Shown here: positions 18,298-44,000 of the stretch, in pieces | Layout: each line of letters starts with the position of its first letter | How positions within the stretch are numbered: the stretch's first letter is position 1 | Assembly (NCBI GenBank): GCA_964501515.1 | Contig: CAZCSS010000002.1 | Span: forward strand, 1-44,471 | From: an uncultured archaeon | GTDB lineage: Archaea; Aenigmatarchaeota; Aenigmatarchaeia; QMZP01 | DNA length: 44,471 nt | Reading direction: 5' to 3' | Program-made: the position numbers and the translations under genes | The notes under the pieces: generated by a model | The model's database searches: none | Told to the model about the DNA's origin: nothing | The model's input: only the letters and a program-made list of their open reading frames with translations

Positions 18298-18320
18298 AAT
18301 AAATAATTAATCAAACCATG

Positions 18321-18329
18321 TAATAAAGC
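18321..18329 (-). promoter_or_regulatory. Possible internal TATA-like box in the 39-nt spacer before the 1,959-aa gene
   Basis: The minus strand reads CTTTATTAC at about -32 to -24 relative to the ATG at 18297. The spacer is otherwise A/T-rich (TTGATTAATTATTTATT directly before the ATG). This could equally be a co-transcribed spacer. Confidence 0.3.
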
Positions 18330-18336
18330 TTCGATA

Positions 18337-20079: not shown

Positions 20080-20088
20080 GCTTTATTT

Positions 20089-23000
20089 TTAGCCTCCTGC
20101 CTTTTCAAGCCTCTTCTTCACAGAGTCTATGTAAGTCTTGGCCATGGTAAACATGGTCTGGCGGGTCTTGTCTTTCGCAAGCTTGAGCTCGAACTCGATG
20201 TCTGTGGTGTCAATCTTCCTGTCTTTGAGGGCTTTAGTCCTTCTCTCGAGCTCTGCTATTTCCTTATCGTATTTTATGTACTCTGCTATGTCCTTGTCAG
20301 AAAGCCTTCCTGTATCGTGCAGGAGCGGCCTGAACTCGATGAAGTAAGGCTTTCCGTCATTGTATTCCGCATTCTGGACCTGGCCTGTTCCTGTCTTTAG
20401 TTTAGTTATTGTTGCCGCGTAATTAAATCCGTACTTCTCCTTGACCCTCCTGATGTCGCCTGTATACTTGGTTCTGAGCTGTATCTCTGTCGAGATGTTG
20501 GCCCTGATGGCTCCCTTGAAGTCCATCAGAACCTGGGATATGAGCCAGAGCCCTATTCCCCATTTTCGGAACTCCCTGCAGCCCCTTTCAAGGGCGACAT
20601 AGCCGCCCTTTCCGCCGTACTTGGGCAGCAGTCTGTGGACCTCGTCATAGAATATCATGCACTTCAGGCTTGTTGCCTCTGGCCAGGGTATCTTGAATAT
20701 ATCTGAAATGGTTTTCCTGACAAAGCCGTCCAGAACCGCGGGCTCAAACTTGTTTATCAGGAACACTGTTATCTCTCCCGGATTCATGTAGTTCCGGATG
20801 TCTATGTCCATGTTGGGGTCTTCAACCTGAACGATGCGCCCCTTGAATCTTCTGGCATCTGTTGGTTTCAGGCCGAACTTGGGATAGAGCTTGAGCATCT
20901 TGGGGTCCCTGCACGGCCTCAGGAAGCCGGTCCACTGGCATGTCGGGTCGAACACTATTACAGGTATCTTTCTCTTGAGCAGCTCCTCGGCACACACCAT
21001 GGCCGAGACCGACTTGCCCGAACCTGTGGAGCCGGCTGATATGCCGTGCATTCTGAGCTGCTGCATATCCCAGTAAGCAACCACATCGGTCTCGGCTATC
21101 TTGCCCACAGGGAATGTGTTTGGTCCTGGCTGCGGGAGTTTCTTGAAGTCCATCGGGAAGATGTATCTGGCCTTCTTGGCGGTTTTCTCTTTGTAATACA
21201 TGTATGCGCGCCTTCCTATATAGAAGCTCGGGAGTATGGCGAAGAGAATGAGATATGTTCCCCAGAACCAGAAAATGTTCCTCAGGGCCACAAGAACAGG
21301 GGGGAGTTCTATCACATCAAAGGTATCTACTGCGATGGCTGCCTTCCTGCCGTTCCAGTAGGTCACATTGGCCTCGAGGGTGTAGCGATCATAAGGTATG
21401 TCTTCTGGAAGGGATATCTGATGCTTCATGGTCTTGACCTGGTCCACAGCGAGTGTTTCCTTTGTCATGTACATCAGTTTTTCGTCCGAAAGCCGCTTGA
21501 CTTTGAATTCTGCCACAATGTCATTGATTGATGCTGTTTCTCCCATGTTTATCAGTGTAAGTTCAAATGTGAGGTTGCCGCCGGGCTCAATGGCTTTTGT
21601 GAGGACTCTGACCTTGACGTCAAGAAGCGGCTCGGGTGTTCTCTCAATCCTGACGGTGACAGGCGTCCTGTGCGTGATGTTCCTGCTGACTATCTCTGTT
21701 ATTATGTCTCCTGTGTATATGCCTGGTGGGGTTGTGGGAAGGGCGTAGAGTTTAACCTTGAGGATGCCCGTATCCTTTCCTGATATGTTCATCTCGGGCT
21801 TTTCTATCTGCACAAGTTCCCATACGTTTCCTTCAACCCGCGTCTTTGCCTGTATCATTGTATCCCTGTTGTTCAGAATCTCTACTGAGTGGATCTCGAA
21901 CTCGCCCTGCTCAAGCGTGACGAATATCAGGGTGGATTTTATCTCAACCGGAACCGAAGGCATGCCGGGCGGGGCCACCATGGCTGCTCCGCCTCCTCCC
22001 CCGCCTGCTGACGGCGGTGGCGGCGGCTGGGGTGTAGGAAGCGGACAGTCAGAGGGGCAGGAAGTGGTAGACTCCCCGTAAGAGGCCTCGCAGGTCCCGT
22101 CGCCGCAGATGAACTGGGCCAGAACATAGACATCTCCCAGCGTAGTGTCAGATGCCGTTACTGTTTCATTTATAACATCAATTGTGCTGGCAAGCCTCGT
22201 CCACGTCCCGTTGCATCTTGTATACTGCTTCCAGCTGTCGCATTTGTACAGAGCAAGGTTGTCTATTGTGAACATGTCAGCGGACTGGGAGTAGTCCATT
22301 GTGATATTGAAACTGCTCGAGTTCATGGCGGTCCTGATGAGGACCCCATTCCTTATGGGGCCGTTTCCTATCTTCATCCTGTTAATGCTACCAAACGTGT
22401 AGGGGTTGTAAACGTCAGCCAGGAGCGGGGTGTTGTATGTTGTGAACGTGTCATTCCATATCCTGGTCACGATGTCATAGTTCCTTCCGTCTATTGTTGC
22501 GTTATAATATCCCGTGTCCGGGTCGCTTGTTACATTTATTATGAGTGTGCTTGATCCGTTTCCGTAAAAGTCAAAGGTCACATTCAGGGGAGCAACATAA
22601 GGCTTTTCAATATCCTCTGCGATTCCCTGGAAGTTCACCGAGGGATATATTTCAAAACTGGTGTTGGTGGTGTTGCAGTTACCTGACTTGTCGCATGCTG
22701 TTACATTCACTGCATATACGCCAAGCTGGGATGTGTCATTCAGGTAGAGTTTGTAGGTATGGACAATGCCTGAACTTGAAACATAGATAAAATCGTACGG
22801 GTATGTGGTTGTGTTCGGGAATGTTATCTCTCCTGCTACACTCTGAACGCCCCCGCCTTCTGTGATGTTGGCTGTTATCACAGCTGTGGTATTGGCAGGT
22901 ATCAGGGGTGGGACATAAAGATCAATGTCTGGTGGATTGGGGTCAAAGTATACAATGGAATCGTGCTCAAAGTCAGACAAAACCAGAGATATGTTGGTGA

Positions 23001-26000
23001 TGGAAGTGTTGGTGTAGTTTGCTGTCACATTAAGGCCGAATGCTCCTTCCTGGCTTACATTGGGAGCCTGGAAGGAAAGGACCCAGTAGCCGTTAGAGGG
23101 GGAATACGTGCTGCTGTTGAGGGTTATTGGTATGCTTGTGGAACTGTTTGACATGATAACAGCAAATTCTACACCACCGGTTACTGGTTCTGTTGTGTAA
23201 TTCACATACGCTATGACATCTATCTGGTCGCTTGCATTAACGTTGATCTTGGGATTGCTGCTCGTCGGGCTGGTGACATTGACAAAATAGGGATGAACTG
23301 TCATGTTGACAAGGCTTATTCTCTCTGGTGGGTTGCCTGATGTGTTCTGAGTTTTTATGTATCCAGAATAGGTGTATTTGCTGTAAACCACGGGCGCACT
23401 GTAATTGACATAGAAATCATAATAATCATTCATCTCCACATCTACTGGTGTGTTATCATTGAACCAGGCATAGCCAAAACCGAATATATTGCCCCAGTAC
23501 GTAACACCCAGCCTGACGGGAGCGTTGCCTGTGTTATGAATCTCTATTGTTCCCAATTCCCCTGTTGTCCCCTGTATAACCTCTTTTGTGAGATTCTCAG
23601 GCAGCTGGGTCCATGAAATGTTCTGCGGTATTGTTAGGAAGAGTTCAATCCATGCAGAGACGTTCTCGGAACTGTTTGCCCGTATGGTAGTGTTATACGT
23701 GCCTGCGGGATATGTACCAGGGACAGATATTGTTATATTCACCGAGGCGTTCTGACCTGATTCCAGAACCGGCACCCAGTCAGGGGTAAGATGCACAGAA
23801 AAGTTCTCACAGAAATATGGTGTGCTGTTACCAGAATCATCGCACCACAGGGTTATGTTTGTTACATTAACATTGCCTGTTGACAGCAGGATGGTGGTGG
23901 CATTGGCCGTGGCATTGGCAGCAATAATGGTTGTTATGTTTTCATCAAGGAACTCCATTGCGGGATTGGAAAAGACATTCACCAGTATGCCGGTCAGATT
24001 GTAAGCAGTTGTATTGTCCATATTGGTCCAGTTGGCTGTTACATTAACAGTGTAATTGCCCGGGGCTGTTCCGTTTGCCACTGTTATCCTGCTCTGGTTC
24101 TGGCCTGATGTGTATTTAAGCAGGTCGCCGAAAAAGAAATAATCCGGCGAGGCGCTCCAGTTCAGGGGAAGTGTGATGTTGGAGGATATGTTGAACGCCC
24201 TTGCCCAGGCCGGAGTAATGTTTATAGCGATGTCAAAGCTCTCGCCCCAGTATATGGTTATGTTGGTTATGTTCACCTGCGTCACGTTCAGGATTATATC
24301 TATTGGTGTGCTGCTCGCGGCTGTTATTTCATAATACTGGGTACAGGAAAGCAGGCCCATGGTGTCATTTGCGCATATCCTGAGCATATGGGTTCCGTTT
24401 ATCTCTGAACTGTAGCTGGAAAGATATGTGGGCGCATATGTGTTGTTCATGTCAAAGGAAAGGTGGTTCTGGTCCTGGACAGAATAGCTCAGGTAGGTCA
24501 GGTAAGAGGCATTTGCGGGCGAACCGCTCTGATTCTGTATTGTAAGATTGATTGACTGATTGCCCGGGAGGATGAAACTTGTACCTGCCTGAACAGCGTC
24601 AATGGTGAAGTTCTGTCCGTCTGAAAGGGACTGGTTTTCAGCAAGTAGAAGACCATTTATTGTGAGGTTAAAGTACATCGCTGTCCCATTGATGTTCTGG
24701 ACTGTGATGTTGAAGAAGAGCATAGTGGTTGTATAGTTGGTGCCAATCTGCTCAGTGTAATTGAACCCCTGGTCAGGGTCAGTGGCGTTGTGAATGAGCT
24801 TTGACTCGTTGATGTAAAACGTATCATTGGGCCGAACAGCTTCCACCCATGCATGGGACACTACAAAATTGTCTGTTATGTTGGCGCTTATGTTGACCTG
24901 CTCATAATACATCTCAAAAATCATGGGATTGAAAACCACGTCAGTTATGTTTGGTGGTATGTCAGTGACATTAAGCCAGAAGTCCACTACTCTCTCCTGC
25001 GGCGTGGCACTGCTGTTCCTGGTAAGCAGCTGGACGTAATACATTCCTTCGGGCTGGCTTCCGGGAACAAGATAAGTGACATTCACTGTTTTGGAGAGTT
25101 GTTTGCCAAGTTCAAAATACTCATCGCTCAGGAAGACCAGCCCTGAACCATTCTGGGTTTTGTATATCCTGAATGCTATCTTGATGTTCCCTGTGTTGTT
25201 TACCTGTATTTTGCCCACTGTTCCGTTTGTGTTTATGGGCGCGAGGAATGTGCCGAATGTCGCGGGAGACTGGGTCCAGGTGCTGTTCACCGGGACAGAC
25301 ATATTTATTACAGCCTCGTCATATTCAGCATTGTCAGAAGTTGCCCTCATAAGAGTCCAGTATGTTCCCGGGTCCTGGCCGAGAGAGATGTTTGCGGTCA
25401 CATCAACCGTGAAGTTTGAACCGGCGTGCAGGTATCCCCAGTTTGTTGGAATGAGTATTATATTGCATGTCGGGCATTCAACACCGAAATTCCCCCCGAC
25501 AAGGGAGAGTTGTACGTTCTCCACAGCGTCATTCCCTGTGGCCCCCACGGTGAAGCTGCCCACATAGGTCTCCTCTCCGTTCGGGGTGACATTGTATATC
25601 ATTTCCTCTGTTATATTGAGTATTGGGTTCTCAGCCACAGGTAGATTGGTGACATTCTGGGTGGTGTTTACGGTTCTATCAGGGTTGGTCCATGTGGCAT
25701 TTACATAGAGTTTAATCAGTATTGGAGGTGTTCCGGCCGGAACCTCCACATGCAGGTCCCAGATACAGCTTGTGTTTGCTGACATGTTCCCGCACTCCTC
25801 GAAGGTGTCATTGATAATCAGGGTGTTGTTTGGGTCGTCAAAAGAGGTCAGATTCACGTAATACATATGCGCTGGGCCGGTGCTGGTGAAGTTTATCTCC
25901 ATATCGAATTCGAAGTTATCTGTCTGTGTTATTCCGTAAACAAGAATCTCTTCTGTCTGGTTTATCCAGCCGTAGGACTTGCCCCATACAGTGAAGTTGC

Positions 26001-29000
26001 CCGCAAACGTGGAGTTCATGTTGGATTCAGGCGGGCTGTCCCATGCATATATTGTGACATTATAGAGTCCTCCTATGGGCGGGAGATACTGGACCCTGTA
26101 TGTGGTGTCGGTGAAATTGGCCATGGTCAGGTTCACGACCGACTGGTTGGGCATGGTTATGGATGCTGTTACAGTGTCCACCGCAGTGTCGTCGGTTACA
26201 TCAGATGTTATATTGGTAGTGTTCAGCCAGGCCTCTATGCTGGTGTTGGGGACTATGGAAACGTTTGAGAATTCGGGCGGGTACACGTCACGGACAAATA
26301 TGAGCGCTGTGGCATTGTTTATATTGGCGCTGAGCTCCATGCTCTCGTTGTCTGTTATGTTGCAGATGAATGTGACATTCCCTTTCTGCGAGGGGGTGAA
26401 CTCCTGTGTCACATAACCTGTCTGGTTGGTGGGAAAGGTTCCCACATAGGTCCATTCCGTGTCATTGTACCAGACCTCCACTGGATAGTTCTCTATCGGA
26501 GTAAATGACTCGCCATCAAGCACGCGGCAGGTATAGTTGAAGGATAGCGGATATTCCATTATTGAGAGGTTCGGAGGAGATATCCAGTAGACATCAGCCA
26601 GTCCGCCCAGTTTCAGGGTGACGTAGTCGATTCCGTTGTCATAAAACTCCCTTGTGGCTTCGGCCTTGAATGTCCTGTTCCCTGTGCTCTGGTAGAGGAG
26701 ATATATTTGCGTGTCGTTCCCGCTGGCCAGCCAGTCAGTCTCATTGTACCAGTTCACTGTTGTGGTGGTGTTTATTCCCATCTCGTCATAGACCCATGCT
26801 GAGAAATTCTGGATGCTGTTCTTGCTCACAAAGGTGTTGTTCTCAGGTTTCACTATCTCCGTTGTCAGGACGCCTTTCACGGTAATGTTGGTCTTCACTG
26901 TTTCGGAATCCTCCAGGCCCGGCTTGGTGGCGTTTATGTATATCGTGTAGTTGTTCGGGACAGCGTCATCAACCGGGTTGTAGGGGGTGTCTATCGTGCA
27001 CCATCCTGTCCCGTTTGTGGTGCAGTTGCCTATCAGCCCTGTGGAATTGAAGAAGGACACATTTGCTCCTGAGGCATTCCCCACATTGGCATCGCGGACA
27101 TGAACTGTGATATTGGTCTCATACGGGGTGTAACTGTCATTCCTGTGTATGCTCTGGTTGCCAACCAGGATATCATCTATTATCAGGGGTCTGCTGACTA
27201 ATATCAGGCTGTATATTGCTGTAACAGAATCATTGTAGTAAAGCGTGGAGTTGTCTGTTATGTTGCATTTTATTTCATACCAGCCCGGGGTTTCCTGACC
27301 TGTTGCCCAGAGCCATGTGACATAGCCTGTCTGGTTGGTCTCGGTTGAGAGATTGAGCGTGTTGTTGTTGTACACATTAACCGTGTAATTCGCTATTGGC
27401 TGGTTGAGATTAAGGTCGCTGACATGGCAGGTTACGCTCACATTGGTGCCTGATATTACGTTGGTGTAGTTCTCCGGATAAATCAGGCCAAGCCCGCTCC
27501 AGCCATATATGTATATGCCTGTGGTGTTGTATCCGAAGTCATGATATGACAGCGTGGAGTTTATCTTTATGGTTTCAGGTCCGAGGGGATAATTATAGGA
27601 TATATTCCATGTGGAATTGTAGAAGCTTGCACTGGTTCCGTTTGTGGTGCTGATTACATCCCATGTCTGATTGAACCAGGTAACATTGGATGTGTTTATG
27701 AAGTTTGTGCAGTCATCGAGCACTGATATGTTCAGGTTATATGTCATGTTTCTGTTGAGAACCTCACCACCATAGGGGTGATATGGCTCAGTATAAAGCT
27801 GACCGTACACATCAAGGCTGGCCGGGCTTGTATTTATCATCTGATAGCAGGAGTCTGTGGAGCCGCCTATCCACTTCTGGACACCTGTCAGGGAGGAGCA
27901 GCTTGCATTGTAATACACCCTGCAGTACCCGCTGCTGGAATCACAGTCAAGGGAAACAGTGTAGTTGTTGTGGTCCTCTGTCACCCATACAGTCCCGTTC
28001 ACGCCATCAGGATAGGTATTCAGAAAGTCTGTATCCTGTATCCTGAACGTCAGGTTCGCATAATCATCTCCCAGCCTCCTGACCTCAGTGTCGCTTGTTT
28101 GCAGGGACACAGTCACATTGTCAGGCTGTATGTAAAGGATTCTCACGCCCGCTGTGTAGTTCAGGTAGACGTTATAAGCCGAGTAATCACCCCCTCCAGA
28201 ACCATTACTGACCGAGAGTATTACGGTCTGGTTCTTGGGGATGGTGTCGTCATCACTCGGCATATTGAAAGAGGCGCCTGCCTGAACAGCGTCAATGGTG
28301 AAGTTCTGGCCGTCTGAAAGGGAATGGTTTTCAGCTACAAGATAGCCATTCACTGATATGTTGAAGTGCATGGCAGAGCCCTTTTTGTTTTGCACGGTTA
28401 TGTTGAAGTAATCCATTATCCCGGACACTGATATGGTTTCTGTATGGACAAAACCATTGTCAAGCACAGCATATTCCAGATATGCTCTGTAGTTTGCGCC
28501 GAGCGGGGAACCTGAGTCCGTTCCTATCGAAAGGTTTATTGTCTGGTTTCCTGGCAGGGCAAAGGCCGCGCCTGCCTGAACAGCGTCAATGGTGAAGTTC
28601 TGGCCGTCTGAAAGGGATTGGTTTTCAGCAAGGAGAAGACTGTTCACTGTGAGGTTGAGGTACATGTCACCCCCGTTCAGATTCTCTATTGTGACATTGA
28701 AGAACTCCAGATAGCCGGATTCATTTATGTCCTCTGTGTAATTGAATCCTGTGTCCGGTGTGGCGGACGAATCGTGAATGAGTTCTGAGATGTTGAGAAT
28801 CGTGTAGTTACCCCCTCCGGAAGAATGGATTATTTTGTTGTTCACTACTGTTGTGTTTACAAATGGTTCTTCCTGCTGACTGGCTGTGGGGTCATAGTTA
28901 CTGTCATCCCAGTAGTTGAGATCGTCAGTGCTTCTGAGCTTGAAGTATCTCTTGCCTATGTCCGGGCAGGAGAATCTCTGCCAGAAAACCGGATTGTATA

Positions 29001-32000
29001 TGGTCTTTCCTGAATCATATGTATAGTTTATCAGGGTCCAGTTCTCCCTGTTCTCACTCATCCAGAGTGTTATGTTGTTGCTGTCGCCGTCGGGATCTAT
29101 CACCCTTGCGGTGAACTTATAGTATTCGCCCCAGCCCGCTGCCATGTCCCAGTAGGCAAACGGCAGGGACGGCTGCACCTGCTCTATCTTGAACTTGTCA
29201 ATGTAGGGCTCATAACCAACATGGAACGCATCAATCTTCATGGTGGTGTTTTCCCCGTAATACTGCTTCGCTGACTTCATTGTGGCATTGTACCACCCGG
29301 TGTAGTCTGCCCTCCATGTGCAGTTGTAATACCCCCCTCCCAGCTCGGTCTGGTTGGTGCATGTATATTGATTCCTCCCGCTTATTACCTTCCATGTTAT
29401 GGTGGCATTCTCCACGGGCCTGCAGTCGTCCTCCAGATAGCCATGCAGGGTTATATACTGGTTCAGCAGGTAACCTGTGCTGTTCGGAAGGAGTATAACA
29501 GGATTGAGATTGGACTTGAGAAGGACAAAATAGTCGCTTGAGTTCTGGTCCTTCCAGCACGAGTCTCCACGGGTTCCTCCCTTCCAGCGGAGTGTCCCCA
29601 CGGTATAATTGCAGTTTTGCCTGGGGGCGTCTGCTATGAAGTTGTATGTTATATGCCCTGTCCCGTTAGTAAAGGCGTCTGTTCCCTCGTCCCATGAATC
29701 CGGGTCAGAGGCGTTTGTGGTGGACCAGAAATGGGCATTCCTTCCGCCTGCAAGGGTGTCATTGCTGTCGTTATCAATAAGACGGAGTACAAGGGGGATA
29801 GAACCTGTTCCGTTCCTCCACACCTCGCTCATGTTGCCGAAAGAGTATTCCACCCTGATGTCGTCTTTCTCAAGCGTGAAATTGTGCGGATTTGTTTCAT
29901 CGATGTTGCTCCTTTTGTCTATGGCCTCAAAGTAGTATGACCAGTTGCCCAGTTCGCAGAACAGCTGGTTTCTCCACTCCAGGGCAATCTGCGTGTTGTT
30001 GGGCCCTGCCACCTCGGTTGTGTTCTGCAGGCTCCAGCTGGGCGCCTCGGGCTCCATGTCCTTCACATAAAGGTTAATTGTAACGTTGTCAAGGTCCTCG
30101 TCAGTGATATTCACGTAAAAAATCTGGGTCTCGTTCCATCCGACCGGGTCTTTCTGGGCGTATTCCCCGGAAAGCACGGGATTTGTGTATACGAAGAAAT
30201 GATAGTATGTGGCGTTTGTGGCATTGAAGTAGTACGTTCTTGATGTATTGACCTCGGTGTGATACCATCTTGCCAGCATGCCTGTAGTGTTCCTTGTGCA
30301 TTCGTACAGCCCTGCACCAAGGGGATCAACATAGCATTCATACTCTGTCTCGTTATTCTCATTAATAAGGTATGCGGTGGCAAGGTCGGCGTCTATTCCC
30401 ACGCCGCAGTCTGATTTCAGATTGAACTGTATTGTTGCGTTCTCCTCTCCCCTGGAATAGTTGTGGCCGATCTCAGGGGAGGTTATGAGAATCTCAAGGT
30501 TTCCGTATATGTTTAATTCGAGCTGCTCTGTCAGGTTGGCATTCTGATAGCACTGATCACTTATTCCGGCCTTCCATCTCTGTGGGCCTGTCCTGTAATA
30601 GGGATTTACATCGCATGAGGGATCAAAATAGTAGTTGGCATACCCCGAGCTGTTGGTCTGGGTGATGTTGCCGGCCTGCCAGGAATCCGGGTCACTGGAG
30701 TTCCATGTAACCCAGAATGTTATGTTATGGCCTGCTGGTACGGGTGCCCCAAGGTCATCATCCGTGGCGTTCACTATGAGAAGGGTTGTGTTGTATCCTG
30801 TTCTGGTCACGTTGCTCTCGTTCCCGAAGATATAGTATATTGATGCGTTCTGCGGCTCAATGGTATAGCCGGATTGCGCGGTGGTGTTGAAGTCATTCCC
30901 CAGGGTTCCGTCATCCAGCCAGAACTTATATTGATTGTCGCTTCCTATATCAGTGCAGTCAAATGTGGCCAGAAGAGAGCAGTTGCCCTGACCACCGTAG
31001 ACAATGGTTTCATTCTTGTATACCCAGGTGGACCCCCCGTCGGTTGATGTGTAGAGGATGCAGGTTACGTTGTCCTGCTGCTGGTCCCGGACCGATGTAT
31101 TGAAAGTGAATGTCATGGCCCACCCTTCTGCCGGCGGGTCAACACTGAAATTCCCAACTTCAGGGGGGGTGTTGTTCAGGAAGAACCTGTCCTCCCATAA
31201 GGTGGAGTTGGAGGAGTGATAAATCCTGCTCGTGTTTATCATTATATCCCACCACCCGCCTTCATGGAGGGATGTATCCAGGGTGTAATTATACCATCCG
31301 TTCCCCAGATCAAAGGGTGTGTATGATTCGGGTGAGCCCGTGGGGGATATGTAGGTTATGGTGGATGTGGTCTGGTTTACCATTGTCCCGCAGTCATCCG
31401 TCACATTGAATGTGGTGTTGACAGGATTCCCTACCGCGGTTTCATTCCCCTGTTCAGGAAGCTCGAGATAAACCCTGAGGGAGCCGTTTATGGTAAGGTT
31501 TATGGGGGTGCTGTTTGCATTTGCATAATAGCATTCATCGCCTGTGACACCTGCCTTCCACTCCTGGATGCCCGGCTTGTACTCGGGCGTGCAGTTTGGG
31601 TCAAAGTGCACAATCAGGTCACCGCTTGGATTAGTGGAGTTGAAGTGGCCGCTGTCCCAGCTTCCTGTCCCGCTTCCATTGACGGTTATCCATACTGTTC
31701 CGTTCACCCCGGAACCTACGGTGGTGTAACCATAATCCAGGTCAACAAAGTATGCGGTTATCTGCAGAGAATCCCCGCCCTCTCTGATTACAACCCTGTC
31801 AGGGGCGCAGGACCCTGATCCCGGATTGCAGTATGCCGCTGTTCTGTCCTTGAGCAGGTCAAAATTGTTGACAGTGGTTTCGTTGTAATCCCCCCACTTG
31901 TCAGTGACATCGATCATAAAGTAGTTGGTTCCTATATCAGGGCATGAGAAGTTGTGGGAAAAGGTTTCAAGAATCTCGTTGTCGCCATTGTATGTGGTGA

Positions 32001-35000
32001 AATTCCTGTTTTCCACGAGAACCCAGTTGTAGGGTGAGGTTGTATTGCTCCTCCAGAGGGTCAGGTTCAGAACATCATCAGTGGAGGTTTCATAATCCCT
32101 GACTCTGAGGCGGAAGGTATGGGTGGCTCCCCAGCCCTCTGAGGGTGAGGATGTCTTCCATACAGGAGAATCCCAGCGTATTTCAGGAGGAGTGGAGAAG
32201 TAAAAAGAATCGTTATCCACTGTGAGGCTGGAATCGTTGTAGTATGCCTTCTGGGCAATAGCAGTTGTGTTGTACCAGCCAATGCAGGAGGGAACAGGCC
32301 AGTTCTGTGTATCATAATCTGCAAATGTGCAGTTGTACCACCCTGCAGGACCCCCCTGATTGCCCTCATCAATATAGTTGGAGCATGTGTAACTGCACGG
32401 CCCCTCGGCCTTCAGGGTCATGGTAGCGTTTGTGACCGCGCCCGTGCCCTCGCTCTCGCAGTCATCGCTCACGTACATCCTCATTGTTATGTTGTCTATC
32501 CCTCTTCTGTAGTGCTCCCCGTCCGGGATTGTCATGTTAACATCCAGGGGGTCTGTCCATATCGTAAGATTCCATGTGTCAGACTGGTTGTCCAGATAGC
32601 ACTGGGAACCCACGGTCTCGGCCCTCCATGTCTGCGGCCCGACCGAGTATTTGGGACTGCACCCGGGATCAAATGTGTAATTGGCAAAGCCGCTTCCATC
32701 GGAATACCTGTATCCGCTGCTTATCTCTGAACTCCCCGGTCCGTTCTGGGTAACAAAGAACTCTGTCTGCTGCCCGGGGGTTTTGACATATTCATTCCTT
32801 CCAACATCAAAGAGCCTGACCACAAGTGTCTCGGAGCCGCTCGGCCTGTATATATAGGTATCGTTCCCATAGAAATGGTCTATCCGGACCTCTCCTTTTG
32901 TGAGCGTGAAGTTCTCTGTCGGGGTTTCGTCTGTGTCGCTCGGGCCTGGCGGGTCATCTGTAGCATTGAACTTGAACTCCCTGAGCGAGGTGTCATTGTT
33001 GCTGAGGTCATTGCAGCTGAAATCCCCTTTTGTGAATGTTATGGTGTTGGTAGTGTTGCAGTTGTAGCATTCGGCGTAGTAGTTCCCTCCAGGACCCAAA
33101 AGCGGAGAGCCCCAGCTGGTTTCACCGTATTCTCTCTGGTAGGCGTAAACCCTTACATCATCGCCGTCCTCATCGCTCACATTAACGCTGAAGTTGAAGT
33201 AGGATCCCCAGCCGCTGACGGTCGGGGTGACGCCCACCATTGTAAGGACCGGAACGGTTTCGAGCCAGAAGGAATTGTCCACATATGTGGTGTTGGCATT
33301 ATAGTAGGTTTTATTGGCTTTTACATAGAGGTCAAGCCAGCCTGCCCTGAGTTCGCTGCTGTTGAATGTGCAGTTGTATTTTCCGTTGCCCTCGTAATAG
33401 ACATTCTGGCAGTAGAATGTCTCACCTGTCTGATCGCTTACAGCGCTTATATTAAGATTAACGCCGGATATGTTATTTCCGCAGTTGTCTGTTATGGTTA
33501 TGTTTATGGTGACATTGTCGCCTTTATAATAACTAGTGTCTCCTACAGGACCTGTTACATTAATGTTGAGGTCGTCCATGATTATTATGGTGAGGTTTTC
33601 AGGTGTGTTTTCAGGGTCATAGTAGTTGTCGGTTGTTCCTGCAAACCAGAGCTGGGGACCGACTGAATAAGAGCAGTTGGGGTCAAAGAACACATTGGCA
33701 TAGCCGGTTGCATTGGTTGCTGTGAGGTTGCCCTGGTCATGGCCGGATTCGTTGAAATAAACCCAGAATGTGACATTCACTCCGGAGGGAAACCAGTTGC
33801 CCTGGGAGGCGTTGTCAGTGTCGTTCACTCTTACTGCAAGAAGTTCCGAGTCTCCTGATATGTTGACCTTGGTGTTGTTCTGTGTTATGAACTCCAGGGT
33901 TACGTTTGAGGGTTCAAGGTGGGGGCCGGAGACGTTGGAGGTGTTGTAGTAATTGGAGGGTTCTCCGTTCTGGATGAAGAATTTGAATACATTGTCTCCT
34001 ATGTCTTCTCCTGTGAAGTCGTGGATAGTAACAGAGCATTGCTGGTTGTTTATTCCGTTGGGGTCGTAAAGCGTTTGCATTCCCTTGTAGGTCCAGCCCT
34101 GACCGTTGTATTTGTCTATGTAGAGGGAGCAGTTTATTCTGTCAGAGTCAGGGTCTGTTATGTTCACGGTGTAGGTGTATTCTCTTGTCCAGCCGTCGCT
34201 TGCCGGGGTGACTGACATGTCAGAGTAGGTGGCGTTGAGATTTTCCAGCCAGAACCACTGGGAAAAGAAGGTGTTGTTGTCATTAAGGTAGGTTTTTGAG
34301 GCATTGATCTGGATTCCCCAGTAGCCTTCCCTCTGGTCAGAGGAGTCCCAGGTGCAGTTGTACCAGCCCTCTCTGGAGCCGGTCTCGTTTATCACCGGCT
34401 CGCAGGTGAGCCAGGATGTGTTCGGGGAGAGGAGCTGTATGGTTATGTAGGTCTGGTTCTGGAGGCCCTCCTGGGCGGGGCAGTCTGTTGTGATGTTGAG
34501 GGAGATGTTGATCTGGTCTGTTACGTTGTATGTGTCCCCCTGGACAGGGGAGTAGAGGTTTAGCTTGAGCTGACCGATTACATGGATGGGGGATTCCGAA
34601 GAGTTTCTCGGGCTGTAGCATTTGTCATTGTATATTCCTGCCAGCCATTTCTGGTTTCCGTATCTGTGGTCGCACCCCGGGTTGAAAGAGTATCGGAGCA
34701 TGCCCGAGAAGTCGGTCTGGTTGGTGTACGAAGTGTTGTATTCACTTCCGTTGGTGGTGACATAGAAGGTCCCGTTCACGCCGCTGCTTACATTAACATC
34801 AGCACCCCTGTCAGTGTCATTCACCTGAACAGAAAGTATCTGGATGATATTGCCCTCCCTGTTGATATCAGTATCATACCCGTCCACAACGGTCAGAGAG
34901 ACATTGTCACTGACTATGGTGAAGTTGAAGGGATAGGTTTCATCGGTGAAGTTCCACTGGTCTGATGCATTGAACTTGAACGAACTGTTCTCTCCCGTGG

Positions 35001-38000
35001 GGGTGATGTCACTGCAGCCAAAATCATTTATTGTGAATGTCTTTGTTATGTAACCCGGCCAGGAAGAGCATGACTGTATATCAAGAAGCTCCCAGTCAGA
35101 TGCGGGGGTTTTCCTCTTCCACAGGGAGATGTTGAATCCTGCTGTGTCGTCCCTGTCCCTGCACCTGACCTTGAATGTCCATGTCTCTCCCCATCCGCCA
35201 TCGCCTGTGGAGGAATAGACATTGCTGAGCGGCGGGTAGGCGTCGTAGGTTATGTCAGGCCTGTAGCCAAGAACGAATGAATTGTTTCTGGTCTTGTTTA
35301 TTCCAGCATAATAGTCGCTCAGGGCCTCTATTGTTATGTTATACCAGCCGCTTGCCTTTTCAGGAGACATGGTGCTCCAGTTGTGGGAATAGGTTCCGTC
35401 CCCGTTGTCCGCGACGCTGCCGTTTTCCACGTAGTAGGTTGACGTCCCTGCGAGGGTTATCCTAGTGTAGTTTATGGCTGCTGTTCCATCGCCGCATTCA
35501 TCAAACACCGTGTAATTTATTGGAACATTGCTTCCTGTCTCAATCGGATAGGCTTCTCCGTCCGGTGTGTTTATGGTCATGTTCAGGTAGGACCATATCT
35601 CAACCGTGTATTCGCTTGAGTTAAGGTCCTTGAATTCTGTGTTGTTATGTATCCCGATAATCCATTTCTGGATTCCGACACTGTATTCGCATCCGCTGTC
35701 GGGATCAAATGACTTGTTGATGAACCCGCCCGGGGAGTTGGTGAATGTTCCGAATGTTGTTATGTTCCCGTATATGGCATGGTCTTTGGTTACCCAGACT
35801 GTAGCATTGGCTTCCCCTGCTGAAAGGAGCCTGTTATTCTGGTCTACGGAGCGCACCTGGACAGAAAGCGTGTAGGAGTCAGAGCCGTTCCTCCATATGA
35901 AGGCCCCGTCTCCGTCATAAAGCGTTATGTTCATATCGTCCTTTTCCACAGTATAGTTGTAGCCCAGAATTTCATAGCTGTATGAGGTGCCCCCTGGCTT
36001 CGGGCTGTCAGCATTGTCTGTGGCGTTCATCTTGAACTGCCATGTTCCCAGGTCAGTGGACGGATCGTATTCAGTAGGGTCGTTTGGGTATCCCTGCTCC
36101 CAGGCGAAAACAATGGACTGGTCGCAGTCGCCGCCGCATGAGTTGGGGTATATTTCCTCCCAGGAACCCCAGCCGCTTCCGGGGTTCCATTTTCTCTTGT
36201 AGAAAGTGACAGTGACTGAATCCCCGTCCTCATCTGTAACCCGGACCGAATGGTTCCAGCTTTCTGACCACGAGCCGGAGTTTGCCCCGTCATACGAGGA
36301 GTTTATCATGGGCATTGTGAGGACCGGGGTGGTTTCTATGAAGAATGAGTTGTTCTGGGTGTCTGAATAGTAGAGCGTCAGGTTGCCGGGGTTGTAGTAT
36401 GTCTTGTTGACAGTTATCATCAGGTCATAACCCCTTGCCGCCATGCCTGATGTATTGAGCGTGCAGTTGTACCAGCCGTTTCCTTCTTCAATGGTGCCAC
36501 CGCAATAGTAGTAACTCCCGTTCAGCTGGCTTATCATCGTGATGTTGATGTCAGGGATTCCGGTTATGTTGTTCCCGCAGGAGTCATTCACGTAGAATCT
36601 GAATGTGACATTGGTTCCCCTGAGGTACTCCTCTCCGAGGGGGGAGTCCATGTTAATGTTGAGGTCGTCCATGATTATTATGGTGAGGTTTTCAGGTGTG
36701 TTTTCAGGGTCATAGTAGTTGTCGGTTGTTCCTGCAAACCAGAGCTGGGGACCGACTGAATAAGAGCAGTTGGGGTCAAAGAACACATTGGCATAGCCGG
36801 TTGCATTGGTTGCTGTGAGGTTGCCCTGGTCATGGCCGGATTCGTTGAAATAAACCCAGAATGTGACATTCACTCCGGAGGGAAACCAGTTGCCCTGGGA
36901 GGCGTTGTCAGTGTCGTTCACTCTTACTGCAAGAAGTTCCGAGTCTCCTGATATGTTGACCTTGGTGTTGTTCTGTGTTATGAACTCCAGGGTTACGTTT
37001 GAGGGTTCAAGGTGGGGGCCGGAGACGTTGGAGGTGTTGTAGTAATTGGAGGGTTCTCCGTTCTGGATGAAGAATTTGAATACATTGTCTCCTATGTCTT
37101 CTCCTGTGAAGTCGTGGATAGTAACAGAGCATTGCTGGTTGTTTATTCCGTTGGGGTCGTAAAGCGTTTGCATTCCCTTGTAGGTCCAGCCCTGACCGTT
37201 GTATTTGTCTATGTAGAGGGAGCAGTTTATTCTGTCAGAGTCAGGGTCTGTTATGTTCACGGTGTAGGTGTATTCTCTTGTCCAGCCGTCGCTTGCCGGG
37301 GTGACTGACATGTCAGAGTAGGTGGCGTTGAGATTTTCCAGCCAGAACCACTGGGAAAAGAAGGTGTTGTTGTCATTAAGGTAGGTTTTTGAGGCATTGA
37401 TCTGGATTCCCCAGTAGCCTTCCCTCTGGTCAGAGGAGTCCCAGGTGCAGTTGTACCAGCCCTCTCTGGAGCCGGTCTCGTTTATCACCGGCTCGCAGGT
37501 GAGCCAGGATGTGTTCGGGGAGAGGAGCTGTATGGTTATGTAGGTCTGGTTCTGGAGGCCCTCCTGGGCGGGGCAGTCTGTTGTGATGTTGAGGGAGATG
37601 TTGATCTGGTCTGTTACGTTGTATGTGTCCCCCTGGACAGGGGAGTAGAGGTTTAGCTTGAGCTGGCCGATTACATGGAAGGTCTCGTTGCTGGTCATTG
37701 AACCAACAGGATTGTAGCATTTGTCGTATTTTATCCCTGCGGACCATTTCTGCGCCCCGTAAGTGTATTCGCATGTGGCATTAAAGTCCAGGTTGAGGTA
37801 GCCTGTTCCGTTTGTGGTGGTATTTATCTCAGATCCCCACGAGTTTCCGTCTGTGGTCACAAGGAATGTGCCGTTATAGCCTGCCTTGAGGTCTTCATAG
37901 TTTCTGTCAAAATCCTGAACAAGGACGCTGAAGTATGCGGTGTCATCCCCCTCCCTGTTGAGTGACGGGTCCCCTGCTCCTGATTGTATTGTATACCACA

Positions 38001-41000
38001 CAGTGTCTGCTGTCACATCAAACTGCTGGGATGGCTCTGATTCTGAAGAGTAATTGAACGGGTGATCGGTTGCATTAAACTTTATTTCGTTTGTTCCCAC
38101 ATCAGAGCAGGAGAAGTTCACGAAATCAAAATTCATGGTCTTCGGATTGGCCTGGTCATCAGAGCAGGGGTCGCATTCCTTCTGGTCAAGAAGCTCCCAG
38201 TCATCCCATACACCAGGGGAGAGCTCAACCCTTTTCCAGAGATAGACCGTGACTGTGTTATTGTCCAGGTCATAGACATCAATGCTGAAGTTGAAGTTCT
38301 TGCCCCACGGGCCTGAAGGGAACTGCTGAACCTGGGCATTCTGGAGCACTGGCCGCGAGGCTAGATAGAAGGTCTCAGGGAAGGTCACGCTCGCATTCGG
38401 ATAGAATTCCTTTGAGGTGTTTATGGTTATGTTGTACCACTTTCCGTATTCAAATCCCGGAAGTGTGGTGTCACCCACCGTGGCATTGTACCAGCCTGAA
38501 CCATTGCCAGTGCCGTAATATATGTACTCTGATGTATAGGGCATCCCGTCTATATGGGCTACGGTATCTGCTCCCGGAACCAGGCCGCAGTTCTGAGCCA
38601 GGTCTGTGACATTGAATGTGATATTGAATGTGCTTCCCCTCAGTATGCTCTGGTTAACAGGATACCATAATTCAGGCTCGAATTCAGAGGTTATATTCAG
38701 GTAGTAGATGGCCGTGTCGTTTGTCGGTTTGTAATAGTTCTGTCCGGGATCTTCCACAAGTCCGACCCTCCATCTCTGCACGCCCACGCCATACGTGCAG
38801 CTTCCATCGGGGTTGAAATCCAGCTGCAGTCTTCCGAGAGAATCAGTGGTGTCCGGGGTTCCGGCATCCCAGGAATTCTGGTCAGAGGCGTTGGTGGTTA
38901 TCCAGAACATCCCGGGCGCGTTTGTGGCATTCGGATTTGATGGATTGTCTGAATCATAAACCCTGATGATCAGGGTAGTGGAATCCGATCCCACCCTGTT
39001 CACAACAGAATTGTTGCCCTGAACATAATCAAATCCCACATCGTCTCTCTCCACAGTAATGTTCACTACAGGTGTCTCGGAGTATCCGAAATCGTCCATG
39101 GTGGTGTTGAATTTTATGGAGATGTTGTCTCCTATCCTGCTGACACCCCAGACCTTGGACAGATTTATAACAACATCTGTCCCGCTTGTCTGGTTCTGGG
39201 CCTCGAATGTCCAGTCGCCCGAAGGGAGGATTTTCCAGTAAAGTCTGGTTGTTATGGTATCAAGGTCCTCGTCTGTGGCATTCACAGTGAAGTAAAAGGT
39301 CTCGCTCCATCCGCCGACCTTGGGAGTGGCGTTCGCATCCTCCAGAATCGGGTTGGTCTCAACCCAGAAGGAAGTCTCGTCAAGGACGAATATTTTTGTG
39401 ACAGAATCATTGTTGTAGTTTGGCCTGGTGCTGTTCATGGTGAAGTTGTATGCCCTGGTTTCCCAGCCTGTTGTGTTCAGGGAGCAGTTGTAGTACCCGT
39501 TGCTCTCATTTGTAACATTGTCCCCGGTGCAGTAATACTTCCCTCCGCTCTCGCTCGTGAATGTGAAACTCACAACAGAGTCATTTATCGAATATCCGCA
39601 CCAGGAAGAAACATTCGCCCTTATGGTGAGGTTCTTCTCCCTGAGGATTTTGGTCCCGTTCGGGATCTCAATCTGATTTACCAAATCGCCTTGGATGAAG
39701 ATGGTGTAGTTTTCCAGCGTCCTGTTGATTTCATACCGGTCGTCAGTGGTCTCTGCATACCAGAGCTGTTCTGCCACAGAGTAATCGCAGTCCGGATTGA
39801 AGAAGAAATTCGAATGCCCCGAGCCGTTCGTGTAGACAAGTGTTCCGTTATCAAAGTTGGAGTCATTGTATGTGACGTAAAATGTCACATTCATGCCGCT
39901 CGGATATTCGTTTTTGTCTGTGTCATATATTCTCACCACAAGCGTAGTGTTCTGGTCATAACTTCTGTTGACATGCGCCTCCTGGCCTCCTGTGTAGTTC
40001 CCGTAATTGAATGTTATGGAGACATTGTCCTCCTCAAGATAAGGTCCGGTGAAGTTGCTCGTCCAGTATGTATTGAAGGTGTCATTTATCCTGAACGTGT
40101 AGTTAGTATAACCCATCTCACCTGGCGTGAAATCTGAAACCTGAACTGAGCAGTTTCCCCCGCCGTCATATACAACATCATATCCTCTTTCCACAAAACC
40201 CAGGGACGTGTTGGTGTAAAGCGTGCATGTGACATTGTCCCAGTCAGGATCATCTATTGTTATGTTGTATGTGTACGTGGCACCCCAGCCGTCCCTTGAA
40301 GGGGTGACGTTCTCATTTGATGAGAGGGGATCTCTGTTCTCAAGCCAGAACCTGTAAGGCCAGGATGTGGTGTTCCCGTTGTAGAAGACCTTTGTGGCTG
40401 TTATATTTATTGACCAGTTGCCTTCGGGCTGCCATGAAGAATTCCATGTGCAGTTGTAATCACCGTCGCCCTCGTCGTGCGGTCCCCCGTAGGAGCATCC
40501 TGAGGTGTTTCCACCCAAGTAAAGGACGAGGTTGTTGTTCACTCCTGATATGTTGCCCTCCTCAGCATAGCAGTCGCTGTAAACCGTCCAGTTGATGAGC
40601 ACATCATCCGTGACGTTGAAGCTTGACTGATCAGGGGGCTGGTCAAGGGAAAGCTTGAGCTGGCCGATTACACTAAAGCCCTGTGTGGTGGAGTTCTCAT
40701 CATCATAACACTGGTCATCAATCACACCTGCCTTCCAGTAGAGGTTGTCCGCAGAATAGTTGCAGTCGGGGTTGAAGGTATAGTTCAGATACCCGCTGGA
40801 GTTAGTGACCCTTCTCGTGCCGTTGTCCTCATCACCAATGGTGTTGAGACTGATCCATACTGACCCGTTCACGCCCCCTGGAACAGGCTCGCCTTTGTCA
40901 ATATCATTAACCTGCACCACAAACAAATCAGTATCTCCGCCCTCTCTGTTGACCTCTGTGCTTTGGGTGTAAAAGTTCGTGAAGGATACGTTGTCCTTCT

Positions 41001-44000
41001 GCAGAGTGAATGTAACTTCCTGGGTATCGTTTGTGTATCCGAAACTGTCATTGGCAGTGAAGTAGAAATAACCCACACCATTGAGATAATCCTGGCATGT
41101 GAATATATGATAGAATGTTGTGTTCTCCCATGAGCATCCGCTAACATAATTGGAATCTATGTATGTCCAAGGCCCTCCTGACTGATTGGATACCCAGAGG
41201 GAAATGTTGACAGTGTCTGCCCCCATGTCTTGGTCGCAGTACTCAACCTTGAAAGTGAAATTATACCCCCAGCCCTCAAGATTCGTATCTATAGTGGGTT
41301 CTCTTAGCTGCGGCTTCACAACCAGCCTGAGCGCGTCATCTTCCTGGTCAAAGCCCGGGGAGTAGGAGTAGTTGCTTGAGTTCACAGTGATGTAGTGGAG
41401 CCCTATGCTGCCCTCCCCGCTGGCCCATGTGGCATTGTAGGTTCCGTTCTTCCAGTCATAGACGCTTCCAGGATTCCATGTACCTGATATGCGGAAGGCA
41501 ACCGAGATGTTTGCAACAGGGCCGCAGTCATCCTCAACCTCACCCCATATTGGGACATTGGTTCCGCGCAGGAAAGGCACTGTCCCTGTGGGATAGGTTA
41601 TGTTGTTTGCAAGACTGCCATTGATTGTAAGGTTATATTCTGTTGAATTTACATTGTAATAACATATCGGGTTGTCACTGCTGAAATCGAGCCCCACCTT
41701 CCATAACTGATCGCCCACATAATATTTTGGTGAAGAACACCCGGGGTTGAAGTCGTAGGTAAATGCAGAGGAGGAGTTTGTGGTATTGAAATATCCGTCA
41801 CTCCATTTGCTCCCGTCAGTAGTCACGTACAAATAGCCGTTCTTTCCTCCAAGACCCACTGTTCCTCCGGTATAGTTGTCATAGGCCTGAACCGTCAAAC
41901 TCGTGGCATTGCTTCCGATCCTGCTCACATTCACATTGTTCCCTGTGAGAACAGAGAACGTAACATTTCTTCTCAGGACTTCTATCTGATCATCCCCGCC
42001 AGTGGTGTCATTTCCTCCGTAGTTATCAGAGATGTTTATCAGATAATACCATGTTCCGTTGGGGTTGGTGTCTTGGCAGGAGGTGTGGATTGTGGTAAGA
42101 AGAACCTGCTGGTTTATGCAGTCTGTGCAGGTATCCTGATCAGAAAGAATCCAGCTCCCCGGCGAGCCCTTGGATTCCCAGAGATAGATTGTTACGGTGT
42201 CATCATCGTCCGTTATATTAACCGTGAAATTGAATCTGGACTTTTCAGGATTATCCCCCCACGGCAGGGATGTGGGACTTACTCCGTAATAGTCTATTAC
42301 AGGCGCAATTTCGTGGAAGAACATGTCAGGATAGATTACGCTGTGAGGGTTGTAGTAAACCCTTGAGGCGTTCATGTAAACCGAGTAGTTTCCGCCCGGG
42401 TTGCCTGTGACATCCCATGAGCAGTTGTAATATCCACTGCTCTCATTATTCACAGGGACGCACTGCTCTGTAAAGGAGTCGTGCTGAACAGTATAGTTCA
42501 CATTGGTATCATTTATGAGAACACTGCACTCATCGCTCACATTCCCCCTTATGGAGACATTCTCATTGTCATAGCACACCCAGCCGGCCGGGCAGCTCAC
42601 GTTGGAGATATTCAGGACCATGTCTCCGTATATGGTCATTGTAAAACTGGATGTTGTGTTTTTGTCTTCATAGCAGAGGTTGTCATATGTTCCTGCTTTC
42701 CAGCTTCTTTCGCCCGGGGAATACATACAATCAGGATTCACTATGAAGAGGCCGTATCCTGAAGCATTGGTCACATTGCTCCATCCATTGTCGTAATTTG
42801 TTCCGTTATAAGTCAGCCAGAGCGTGACATTGTTGTCCTGGCTGATATAGGTCAGGTTGTCGTCATCATACACCCTGATTATCATGTACGGGGAACTCCA
42901 CTGGTCTCCTGACCTGTTCACTGTTACGCCTGAACCTCCCTGAATGACAGAGATTGTGACATTGTCCTTCTCCACAAGGAAGGACTTAGCTGTTGTGGTT
43001 GCTGAACCCCCTGCACCATCAGAGGCATTGAACCTAAACCATCTTGTCTTATTGGCATCAGCGCATGTATGATAAACAGAAACATTAATGAAGAGCGGGT
43101 TGGCGCAATACTTGCATTCGCTTGTGTTCAGAAGAGTCCAGGGTCCTGAAGAAGAATTGCCTTCCCAAAGCCAGACAGTGACGTTGTCGTTGTCGACATC
43201 CTCCACTTTTACAGTGAAATTGGTAAGGGCGCCCCACCCTTCAGGGAAGACCTGGTCATGGGAGAGGAGAGGATTGTTGTTCTCATATGACTTGAGGAAG
43301 AACACATCCTCTCTTAAGGTGGAATTGGGGTTATAATACGGAGGGTTCTCTGCATAAACCTTGATGTCATAATAACCAGTCGGGTCCTGTTTGGTGGTGT
43401 TCCATTGACATGTATAGTTCCCGGGGTTCTGCTCTTCCAGAGGAGACGGTCCGCAGGTGTAATTCACGCTTTCATTGAATATCAGGGTTACATTAACATC
43501 TGCCCCGCTTATCATATTTCCGCACTCATCCGTGAGGTTCACATAGACGGTTATGTTTTCCTCCTGATGGTAGGAGGTGTTGTCTGTCCAGGGATAAGGC
43601 TCCAAGAACCCGATAATCGTGACATTATACACTCCTGATTGGCCGAACTTGTAACAGGCCTCGCTCTCATCTGTGTATCCTGTCCAGTTCTGCAGGCCGA
43701 CCTCATATTCACAGCCCGGTGAGAACTCATAAGTTGCATAACCGCTGCTGTTTGTGAGATTGTAGCCGTCTTTTGTATAGTTTGAGCCCGAACCGTTTAT
43801 GGTGATGTTGAAGGCCACCTTCATGGCCGGGTTGTAGGCCTCCTGCTGCCTGTCAGTGTCATTTACAAACAGCGTGAGAATCGCGGTTCCGGATGTCCTG
43901 TTGACCTGGGAGCCGTTGCCTGCTGCATAATGAATTTCTATGTCCTGCTTTTCCATAATAAAGGTGTTGTCATTGTCCGCATAATCCCCGTTCACAACAG

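Follow-up and report, generated by a model that had tools for sequence, protein, structure and literature searches.

The analysed stretch of DNA, hereafter the window, is the 44,471-nucleotide (nt) contig CAZCSS010000002.1 (assembly GCA_964501515.1) of an uncultured archaeon of the Aenigmatarchaeota, and its main feature is a giant gene on the minus strand within which two modules, one super-repeat apart, are identical at all but one of 1,027 nt. The gene occupies 20089..44471; counted from the first ATG (20089..44409) it has 8,106 codons, and no in-frame stop is found upstream of that ATG (44410-44471), where the frame reads ...GGWYNITMNATES..., a normal domain motif. Since the frame is open to 44471, the gene is truncated at its 5′ end by the window; it is longer than 8,126 codons, and any signal peptide would lie outside. 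Residues 1-7,700 contain 519 N-x-S/T sequons against 146 predicted from composition alone, and fit an archaeal N-glycosylated ectodomain. A membrane-spanning segment is predicted at the hydropathy maximum, amino acids (aa) ~7705-7735 (21205..21297, minus strand); the density of sequons is 67 per 1,000 aa before this segment and 3 per 1,000 after it, with a single sequon in the last 366 residues. The C-terminal ~350 residues form a P-loop ATPase domain of the HerA/FtsK/VirB4 clade (20092..21132, minus strand), which is predicted to be cytoplasmic and carries the Walker A motif GSTGSGKS. It matches Pfam DUF87 (3.4e-7), HerA_C (8.4e-6) and, in the PDB, the HerA-like YjgR (6e-5), with weak matches to CedD, TraB and HerA that do not separate the VirB4 from the HerA subfamily, whereas the ectodomain matches Big_7, MG2 and NPCBM_assoc. 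From its sequence the product is thus predicted to be a giant N-glycosylated, membrane-anchored surface protein in which an array of beta-sandwich domains, >7,700 aa in length, is fused through one membrane segment to a cytoplasmic ATPase. Homologues are nearly all partial proteins from metagenome-assembled genomes (MAGs) of Aenigmatarchaeota and other DPANN archaea; none exceeds 56% identity in the protein search, and no relative exceeds 61% in any collection searched. No marker genes or tRNAs were detected in the window.

The ectodomain is highly repetitive. Self-comparison by fragment BLAST of the giant protein resolves it into ~16 modules of ~335 aa, of which every third is closest to the near-identical block and is here designated type B, and the modules are grouped into super-repeats of ~1,000-1,030 aa. 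Copy 1 of the block is the B-type module of super-repeat 3 in the window numbering (36653..37679, minus strand, aa 2245-2586), with a hidden Markov model score of 620 as B-type, and copy 2 is the corresponding module of super-repeat 4 (33560..34586, minus strand, aa 3276-3617). The spacer between them (34587..36652, minus strand, aa 2587-3275) comprises two other modules of super-repeats 3/4 and is unique in the window. The B-type modules of super-repeat 2 (39673..40674, minus strand) and super-repeat 5 (30487..31494, minus strand) are not homogenised and share 43-44% and 37-38% of their amino acids with the block, respectively. An AlphaFold model of aa 2215-2625, computed from an alignment of 24 module sequences, is all beta with a predicted local distance difference test score of 89.7, and Foldseek matches it to MG/Ig/FN3-type arrays with E-values of 1e-8 to 1e-11. 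Read from the DSSP string of this model and not from coordinates, the upstream edge of the block falls in strand 29-32, the final one of the domain before it, and the downstream edge in strand 370-375, with which the following module opens; both edges thus lie where the third domain of a module gives way to the first domain of its successor. The earlier note on this DNA had described the block as exactly one three-domain module; the model agrees with a single module in frame, although the edges deviate from the predicted module boundaries by up to ~5 residues at each end.

Direct pairwise comparison of the two 1,027-nt copies reveals a single difference, an A at 34573 against a G at 37666. The mismatch affects the third codon base of Gly2248/Gly3279 (GGC vs GGT), is synonymous, and is located 14 nt inside the upstream edge in the orientation of the gene, therefore the strictly exact repeat measures 1,013 nt (33560-34572 and 36653-37665). 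The 13 matching bases beyond the mismatch fall in a conserved 'HVIGQLKL' motif that is also present at a third module (40652-40691). The copies are direct repeats, both in frame, and are offset by 3,093 nt or 1,031 codons. The computed alignment thereby agrees with the earlier note, which had counted one mismatch by eye and had placed the copies 3,093 bp apart and in frame inside the giant gene. A near-exact match of 1 kb cannot have arisen by chance, and no other repeat in the window comes near the identity of the block, the next family being one of 180 nt at 71-77%.

Profile scans with an alignment of B modules found 68 loci in GTDB genomes and 48 in JGI metagenomes, and adjacent B modules in ~45 other loci give a baseline of 33-49% amino-acid identity. 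The locus L011 (CAZAEI010000002.1) is a colinear orthologue of the giant gene with 49% identity over 6,791 aa; its B-type module of super-repeat 2 is 57% identical to that of the window, its counterpart of the spacer is 46% identical over 673 aa, and the same interval is orthologous in other species. Together with the window and L011, the locus L009 provides a third full-length orthologue.

Outside the block the likeness between the two super-repeats drops at once. In ungapped comparison the sequence just beyond the edges has 6-19 matches per 30 nt, and the fall takes place within a few nucleotides at both ends. Codon-aware alignment of flank against flank gives 35-62% amino-acid and 42-67% nucleotide identity (overall ~40% and ~50%, respectively), with the fraction of same codons at background level: identical residues are encoded by the same codon in 307 of 307 cases inside the block and in ~40-50% in the flanks. 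The upstream flank of copy 1 (37680..38300, minus strand) is a diverged paralogue of 34587-35200 with ~40% amino-acid identity, and the downstream flank of copy 2 (32950..33559, minus strand) is related in the same way to its counterpart downstream of copy 1, at 42%. The claim that the sequences between and outside the copies are diverged paralogues therefore stands, with 31-38% amino-acid identity of the 2,066-nt spacer to the other inter-block regions of the giant gene and 40-42% for the outer flanks. These values also bear on whether the whole 3.09-kb super-repeat was recently duplicated in tandem by unequal crossover. The spacing of the copies equals one super-repeat period, and the number and relatedness of super-repeats vary among distant relatives (L009 and the locus L014); such an event, however, would have doubled the spacer at ~100% identity, whereas the stretches that follow the two copies share only ~42% identity, only 1,027 of the 3,093 nt are alike, and each flank has an orthologue of its own in L011 and in L009. 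A young duplication of this kind is accordingly very improbable.

The phylogeny of the modules gives the same separation between the block and its surroundings. In neighbour-joining trees with 100 bootstraps of the three full-length orthologues, the two blocks (super-repeats 3 and 4) of each of the window, L011 and L009 form a clade of their own species in 100 of 100 replicates and never group by position (0/100), while the modules of super-repeats 2 and 5 group by position in 100 of 100. The downstream flanks likewise group by position (85/100 and 95/100) and not by species (0/100), with the flank of copy 2 joining the super-repeat-4 flanks. Pairwise identities tell the same: the two blocks are 100% identical within the window, 98% within L011 and 87% within L009, and between species 54-65% whatever the position compared, whereas the downstream flanks are 50% identical to the same position in L011 and 41-42% to the other position. 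Fragments of homologues are 48-53% identical when aligned colinearly, compared with 35-40% when shifted by one super-repeat. Because both flanks have their own orthologues in L011 and L009, super-repeats 3 and 4 are older than the split of these species. The features that characterize concerted evolution are therefore found together at this locus, with paralogues closest to each other within a genome, flanks that follow position, and synonymous identity that ends at sharp edges.

A homogenised pair at the same place is present in several relatives. The locus L011 has its own exact repeat of ~1,005 nt with a spacing of 3,105 nt (1,013 nt at 99.8% by BLAST), which maps to aa 2244-2576 and 3275-3607 of the window protein, beginning at the same residue as the block of the window and stopping 10 residues short of its end; inside the block the window and L011 are only 54-55% identical, compared with 42-49% in the flanks. 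Two JGI assemblies from other samples, L077 and L078, hold base for base the same 21-kb region as L011. In L009 the B pair of super-repeats 3/4 is alike over 946 nt at 94.8% (88% in amino acids), and in P0011 at 87% nucleotide identity. The first 168 nt of the contig L076 match the end of the other copy at 96.4%, P0001 has 138 nt of exact identity in this pair that run to the contig end, and P0003 shows a 123-nt terminal overlap with a period of 3,069 nt. In the MAG KAU24 the pair is a mosaic with 68-97% amino-acid identity (up to 98%). The edges shift little between these genomes: the block is ~3 residues shorter in KAU24, and in P0001 it begins ~15 residues later. Elsewhere in the array, homogenised patches occur in L035 (1,772 nt at 92%), L075 (648 nt at 100%) and L080 (2,199 nt at 86%), so conversion between super-repeats is a trait of the family.

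Selection or convergence acting on the protein could in principle keep two modules alike without recombination, and the B module is indeed better conserved between species than its flanks, while in KAU24 the amino-acid identity of the pair lies far above its codon identity. Such selection, however, cannot hold more than 300 synonymous sites in the window, or ~1,005 nt in L011, identical, and abrupt steps in nucleotide identity are what recombination leaves behind; we give this explanation almost no credence. A pair of modules might also be kept by targeted diversification, as the template and variable repeats of a diversity-generating retroelement, as a silent donor cassette for antigenic variation or as an inserted mobile cassette; DPANN archaea are reported to carry such retroelements aimed at surface proteins, and both copies lie inside a surface-protein gene. 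Against this, the repeat is ~1 kb long, where a template/variable pair measures ~100-150 nt, and differs by one transition instead of many adenine-specific changes, both copies are in frame in the same open reading frame and are homologous to 14 other modules, and no reverse transcriptase or transposase was found in Pfam scans of the giant gene and the larger neighbouring open reading frames of the window, which makes targeted diversification hardly conceivable here.

The identity of the two modules is very probably the result of recent intragenic gene conversion between the B modules of adjacent super-repeats. A non-reciprocal transfer of ~1 kb is the simplest account, because the synonymous identity excludes selection on the protein and the spacer is not duplicated. 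In such an event homologous recombination between the direct repeats, which lie 3.09 kb apart, would overwrite one copy with the other and leave the flanks unexchanged; the partners could be on the same chromosome or on sister chromosomes, and the recombination would presumably be RadA-dependent. The earlier note had offered gene conversion or unequal recombination between the super-repeats, and of these, conversion is supported by the grouping by species and the positional flanks, whereas tandem duplication or unequal crossover alone fails on the unduplicated spacer. The process itself is a known one, the concerted evolution of intragenic repeats, and the comparison of the orthologues indicates that it has acted on the same pair repeatedly, or is continuing, in several lineages over a long time. 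High identity inside the block would permit further conversion and so make it a self-perpetuating island, while flanks of ~50% identity would be unable to support strand invasion or the extension of heteroduplex. If only the block and not the flanks supports recombination, the edges of the island would be nearly fixed at the domain junctions, with the sequence inside them drifting from species to species; selection against chimeric domains may also pin them there and would not be separable from the limit on recombination. The range of within-genome identity, from 100% down to ~77%, fits episodic conversion followed by drift. The GC content at third codon positions is 68% in the block of the window compared with 61-64% in the other B modules and spacers, and 88% in the homogenised blocks of L011 (6893-7924 and 9998-11029) compared with 73-80% elsewhere in that locus, while the older copies of L009 show no clear excess; the raised values may reflect GC-biased gene conversion, with two clear cases only.

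The most serious alternative is an assembly artefact, in which a chimeric join, mis-threading, collapse or the polishing of two ~97-99% identical copies to one consensus made the second copy or its exact identity, the true locus then differing in copy number or arrangement. An exact repeat of 1 kb exceeds typical short-read k-mers or inserts, related public assemblies fail at the block with N-gaps, contig ends and a cyclic contig, and MEGAHIT contigs of the same population from two ENA samples reach only 4.5-6.9 kb. On the other hand, the reading frame is kept across all four junctions, the sequences on either side of them have orthologues in the same order in other species, and, the spacer being unique, flank-block-spacer-block-flank is the only path that uses every segment. 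Moreover, the long-read 1.1-Mb contig L014 has modules of the same type ~3.1 kb apart at 65-78% amino-acid identity, an arrangement that there does not depend on resolving repeats from short reads, and the L009 copies, whose ~5% difference is resolvable, were assembled separately. An artefact could thus alter the copy number or mask a few differences, but not create the pattern, and as the source of it we hold it unlikely.

Several observations nevertheless weigh against recent conversion of the window pair as described, or limit how far it reaches. The number of copies in the window and their exact identity rest on the assembly; assemblers and polishers can collapse copies that are ~97% identical or more, and some assemblers may pass a simple graph loop once, in which case more units could exist. 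The agreement of the L011 region across three assemblies may itself share this loop heuristic. Among the relatives, P0006 is without homogenisation in the part seen, and in KAU24 the pair has diverged at synonymous sites, with the same codon in 61% of the identical residues compared with ~49% in the flanks. The trees of the upstream flanks are clean by position only for the window and L011, with L009 noisier. Finally, either copy could have been the donor, and both the recombination machinery and any selective benefit are inferred. Since the pair has diverged at synonymous sites in some relatives, conversion appears to be episodic and not continuous.

The suggestion that a repeat of this kind breaks short-read assemblies proved correct, as contigs of the homologues end or loop in the block and scaffolds have N-gaps there. 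In L008 (CAZCGK010000005.1) a 100-N scaffold gap lies inside the super-repeat-3 block and hides a whole super-repeat; the locus was considered as the product of a one-copy deletion, which was rejected because of this gap in the block and because the matching JGI contig L076 starts with sequence of the other copy. In the record CP070801.1 (L012 and L030), which bears the label 'chromosome', the gene is interrupted by 100-N gaps every ~3 kb, and parts of the gene are placed 63 kb apart. The 3,192-nt contig of P0003 runs once round a super-repeat period of 3,069 nt and overlaps itself by 123 nt, a cyclic path which hints at a higher copy number in that organism and is not separable from the behaviour of the assembler. 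For the window itself, the MEGAHIT contigs L001 and L002 (ERZ27248172 and ERZ27248458) match 15870-22741 at 99.97% and 99.85%, respectively, so the same population is present in other samples; these contigs stop at least 10 kb short of the block. A scan of JGI contigs for exact 32-mers gave no match to the genome of the window or a close relative, and neither did a scan of GTDB genomes with a single protein nor look-ups of two neighbouring proteins. The public assemblies noted as damaged at these repeats are CP070801.1, L008 and L003 (QMMN01000148.1), and bacterial MAGs (of Deltaproteobacteria, Peribacteraceae, Zixibacteria and others) contain several fragments of homologues through binning. 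The block explains the fragmented, gapped or looped state of these genes in many public MAGs, and super-repeat copy numbers in short-read assemblies, that of the window included, are not trustworthy without long reads.

Intragenic homogenisation of long coding repeats is known elsewhere: streptococcal alpha-C/Rib proteins have identical tandem repeats, and in human nebulin and titin triplicated blocks of exons are nearly identical. A further comparison is with the aciniform spidroin repeats of Argiope, in which long coding repeats are homogenised within the gene (PMC3933166). Like repeats of the spidroin type, the modules described here are near-identical within a genome including silent sites, diverged between species and contained in one giant structural gene; both are explained by gene conversion or unequal crossover and are prone to changes in copy number and to assembly errors. 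Unlike them, the archaeal gene has one homogenised pair among its ~16 modules, the copies do not stand head to tail but have 2 kb of anciently diverged paralogous sequence between them, and the same pair with nearly the same edges recurs in species whose orthologues are 49% identical. It is the combination of one pair out of ~16 modules, interspersed copies, and an island kept with its edges in such diverged orthologues that is unusual. In the giant surface proteins Giant1-5 of Apilactobacillus kunkeei, which are several thousand residues long, short intragenic recombination tracts are the main shaping force (PMC12863079); that exchange is allelic between strains, whereas here it takes place between paralogous modules of one gene.

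By its architecture the gene likely belongs to the class of SPEARE-like DPANN giants, with its N-terminus outside the window. SPEARE giants of Nanohaloarchaeota and other DPANN archaea are described as proteins of 8,000-9,400 aa (PMC10266531, re-analysing Hamm et al. 2019), in which, as in the window gene, arrays of Ig-like beta-sandwich domains and a membrane anchor are followed by a cytoplasmic ATPase of the VirB4/TraG/HerA type, and a role in secretion is proposed there for the nanohaloarchaeal counterparts. In the same source, two related nanohaloarchaeal giants are distinguished by 529 aa of tandem Ig-like domains, which is length variation of the kind proposed for the window gene. In sequence the nanohaloarchaeal proteins are remote, with one match in a Nanohaloarchaea MAG at 25% identity, and in the portions of PMC10266531 consulted neither a ~335-aa module, nor a ~1,030-aa super-repeat, nor a conversion island is mentioned for SPEARE. 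The gene immediately downstream also differs, coding for a 580-aa coiled-coil protein and not for a recognisable second VirB4 ATPase. The tandem beta-sandwich fold is further shared with RTX and other large adhesins and with the MG arrays of alpha-2-macroglobulin and complement (PDB 4p99, 5irb, 6xi3 and 8ayh), a generic likeness with 8-15% identity and low global TM-scores that stem from differing inter-domain geometry; the fold comparison gave no evidence of a function shared with RTX adhesins or MG-domain arrays.

A separate domain of ~100 aa (...GQNFTIDAVQAG...) occurs at aa ~5205-5419 as a tandem pair and again 1,328 aa downstream at aa 6533-6646. Its copies (24538-24717, 28231-28410 and 28525-28704, all on the minus strand) are alike at 52-64% of amino acids and 71-77% of nucleotides, above the background of the gene, which may go back to an earlier exchange between remote regions of the ectodomain. 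Other large genes of the window (1631-9681, 12418-18297 and 18337-20079, minus strand; assigned by Pfam and weak matches) follow the giant gene on the same strand. The 580-aa coiled-coil protein is accompanied there by one of 1,959 aa in which NPCBM_assoc/MG2 domains were recognised; farther on, two coiled-coil proteins, 1,267 and 1,416 aa long, give weak SMC/EzrA-like matches, and a gene for a ParA/MinD-type ATPase and a NUDIX gene sit between these neighbours. The neighbourhood looks like a cluster of genes for the cell surface or for interaction with a host.

Giant surface proteins are thought to mediate the attachment of the ultrasmall DPANN archaea to their hosts, and to our knowledge almost nothing is known of how such giants evolve, since they rarely assemble. 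The present locus shows homologous recombination at the resolution of single modules inside a giant surface-protein gene, and the block is a ready substrate for in-frame changes in the length of the ectodomain. Since the repeat is direct and in frame, unequal crossover between the copies would remove or add 1,031 codons, and loss or gain by this route is plausible; L009, which aligns with one extra N-terminal super-repeat, and L014, with three related B modules and spacers that are 43-53% identical, lend weak support to length variation in the family. A variant longer or shorter by 3,093 bp was not seen, the two contigs of the same population ending before the block. Antigenic variation by means of the repeat, which the earlier note had also raised, is conjecture.

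That one pair of modules has been homogenised over deep time while its neighbours diverge freely would mean either that this module is special or that the island perpetuates itself. A more specific version, in which the island at super-repeats 3/4 is conserved and actively maintained with the same edges across Aenigmatarchaeota-type giant proteins of only ~49% identity, and is selected for identical modules or as a recombination substrate, is possible but less likely than not, and we advance it tentatively. If it holds, the raised third-position GC would also suggest that gene conversion is GC-biased in a DPANN archaeon, two identical modules could serve, for example, in the bivalent binding of a ligand on the host surface, and a permanent 1-kb substrate would let the stalk change by three modules (1,031 codons) at a time without leaving the frame.

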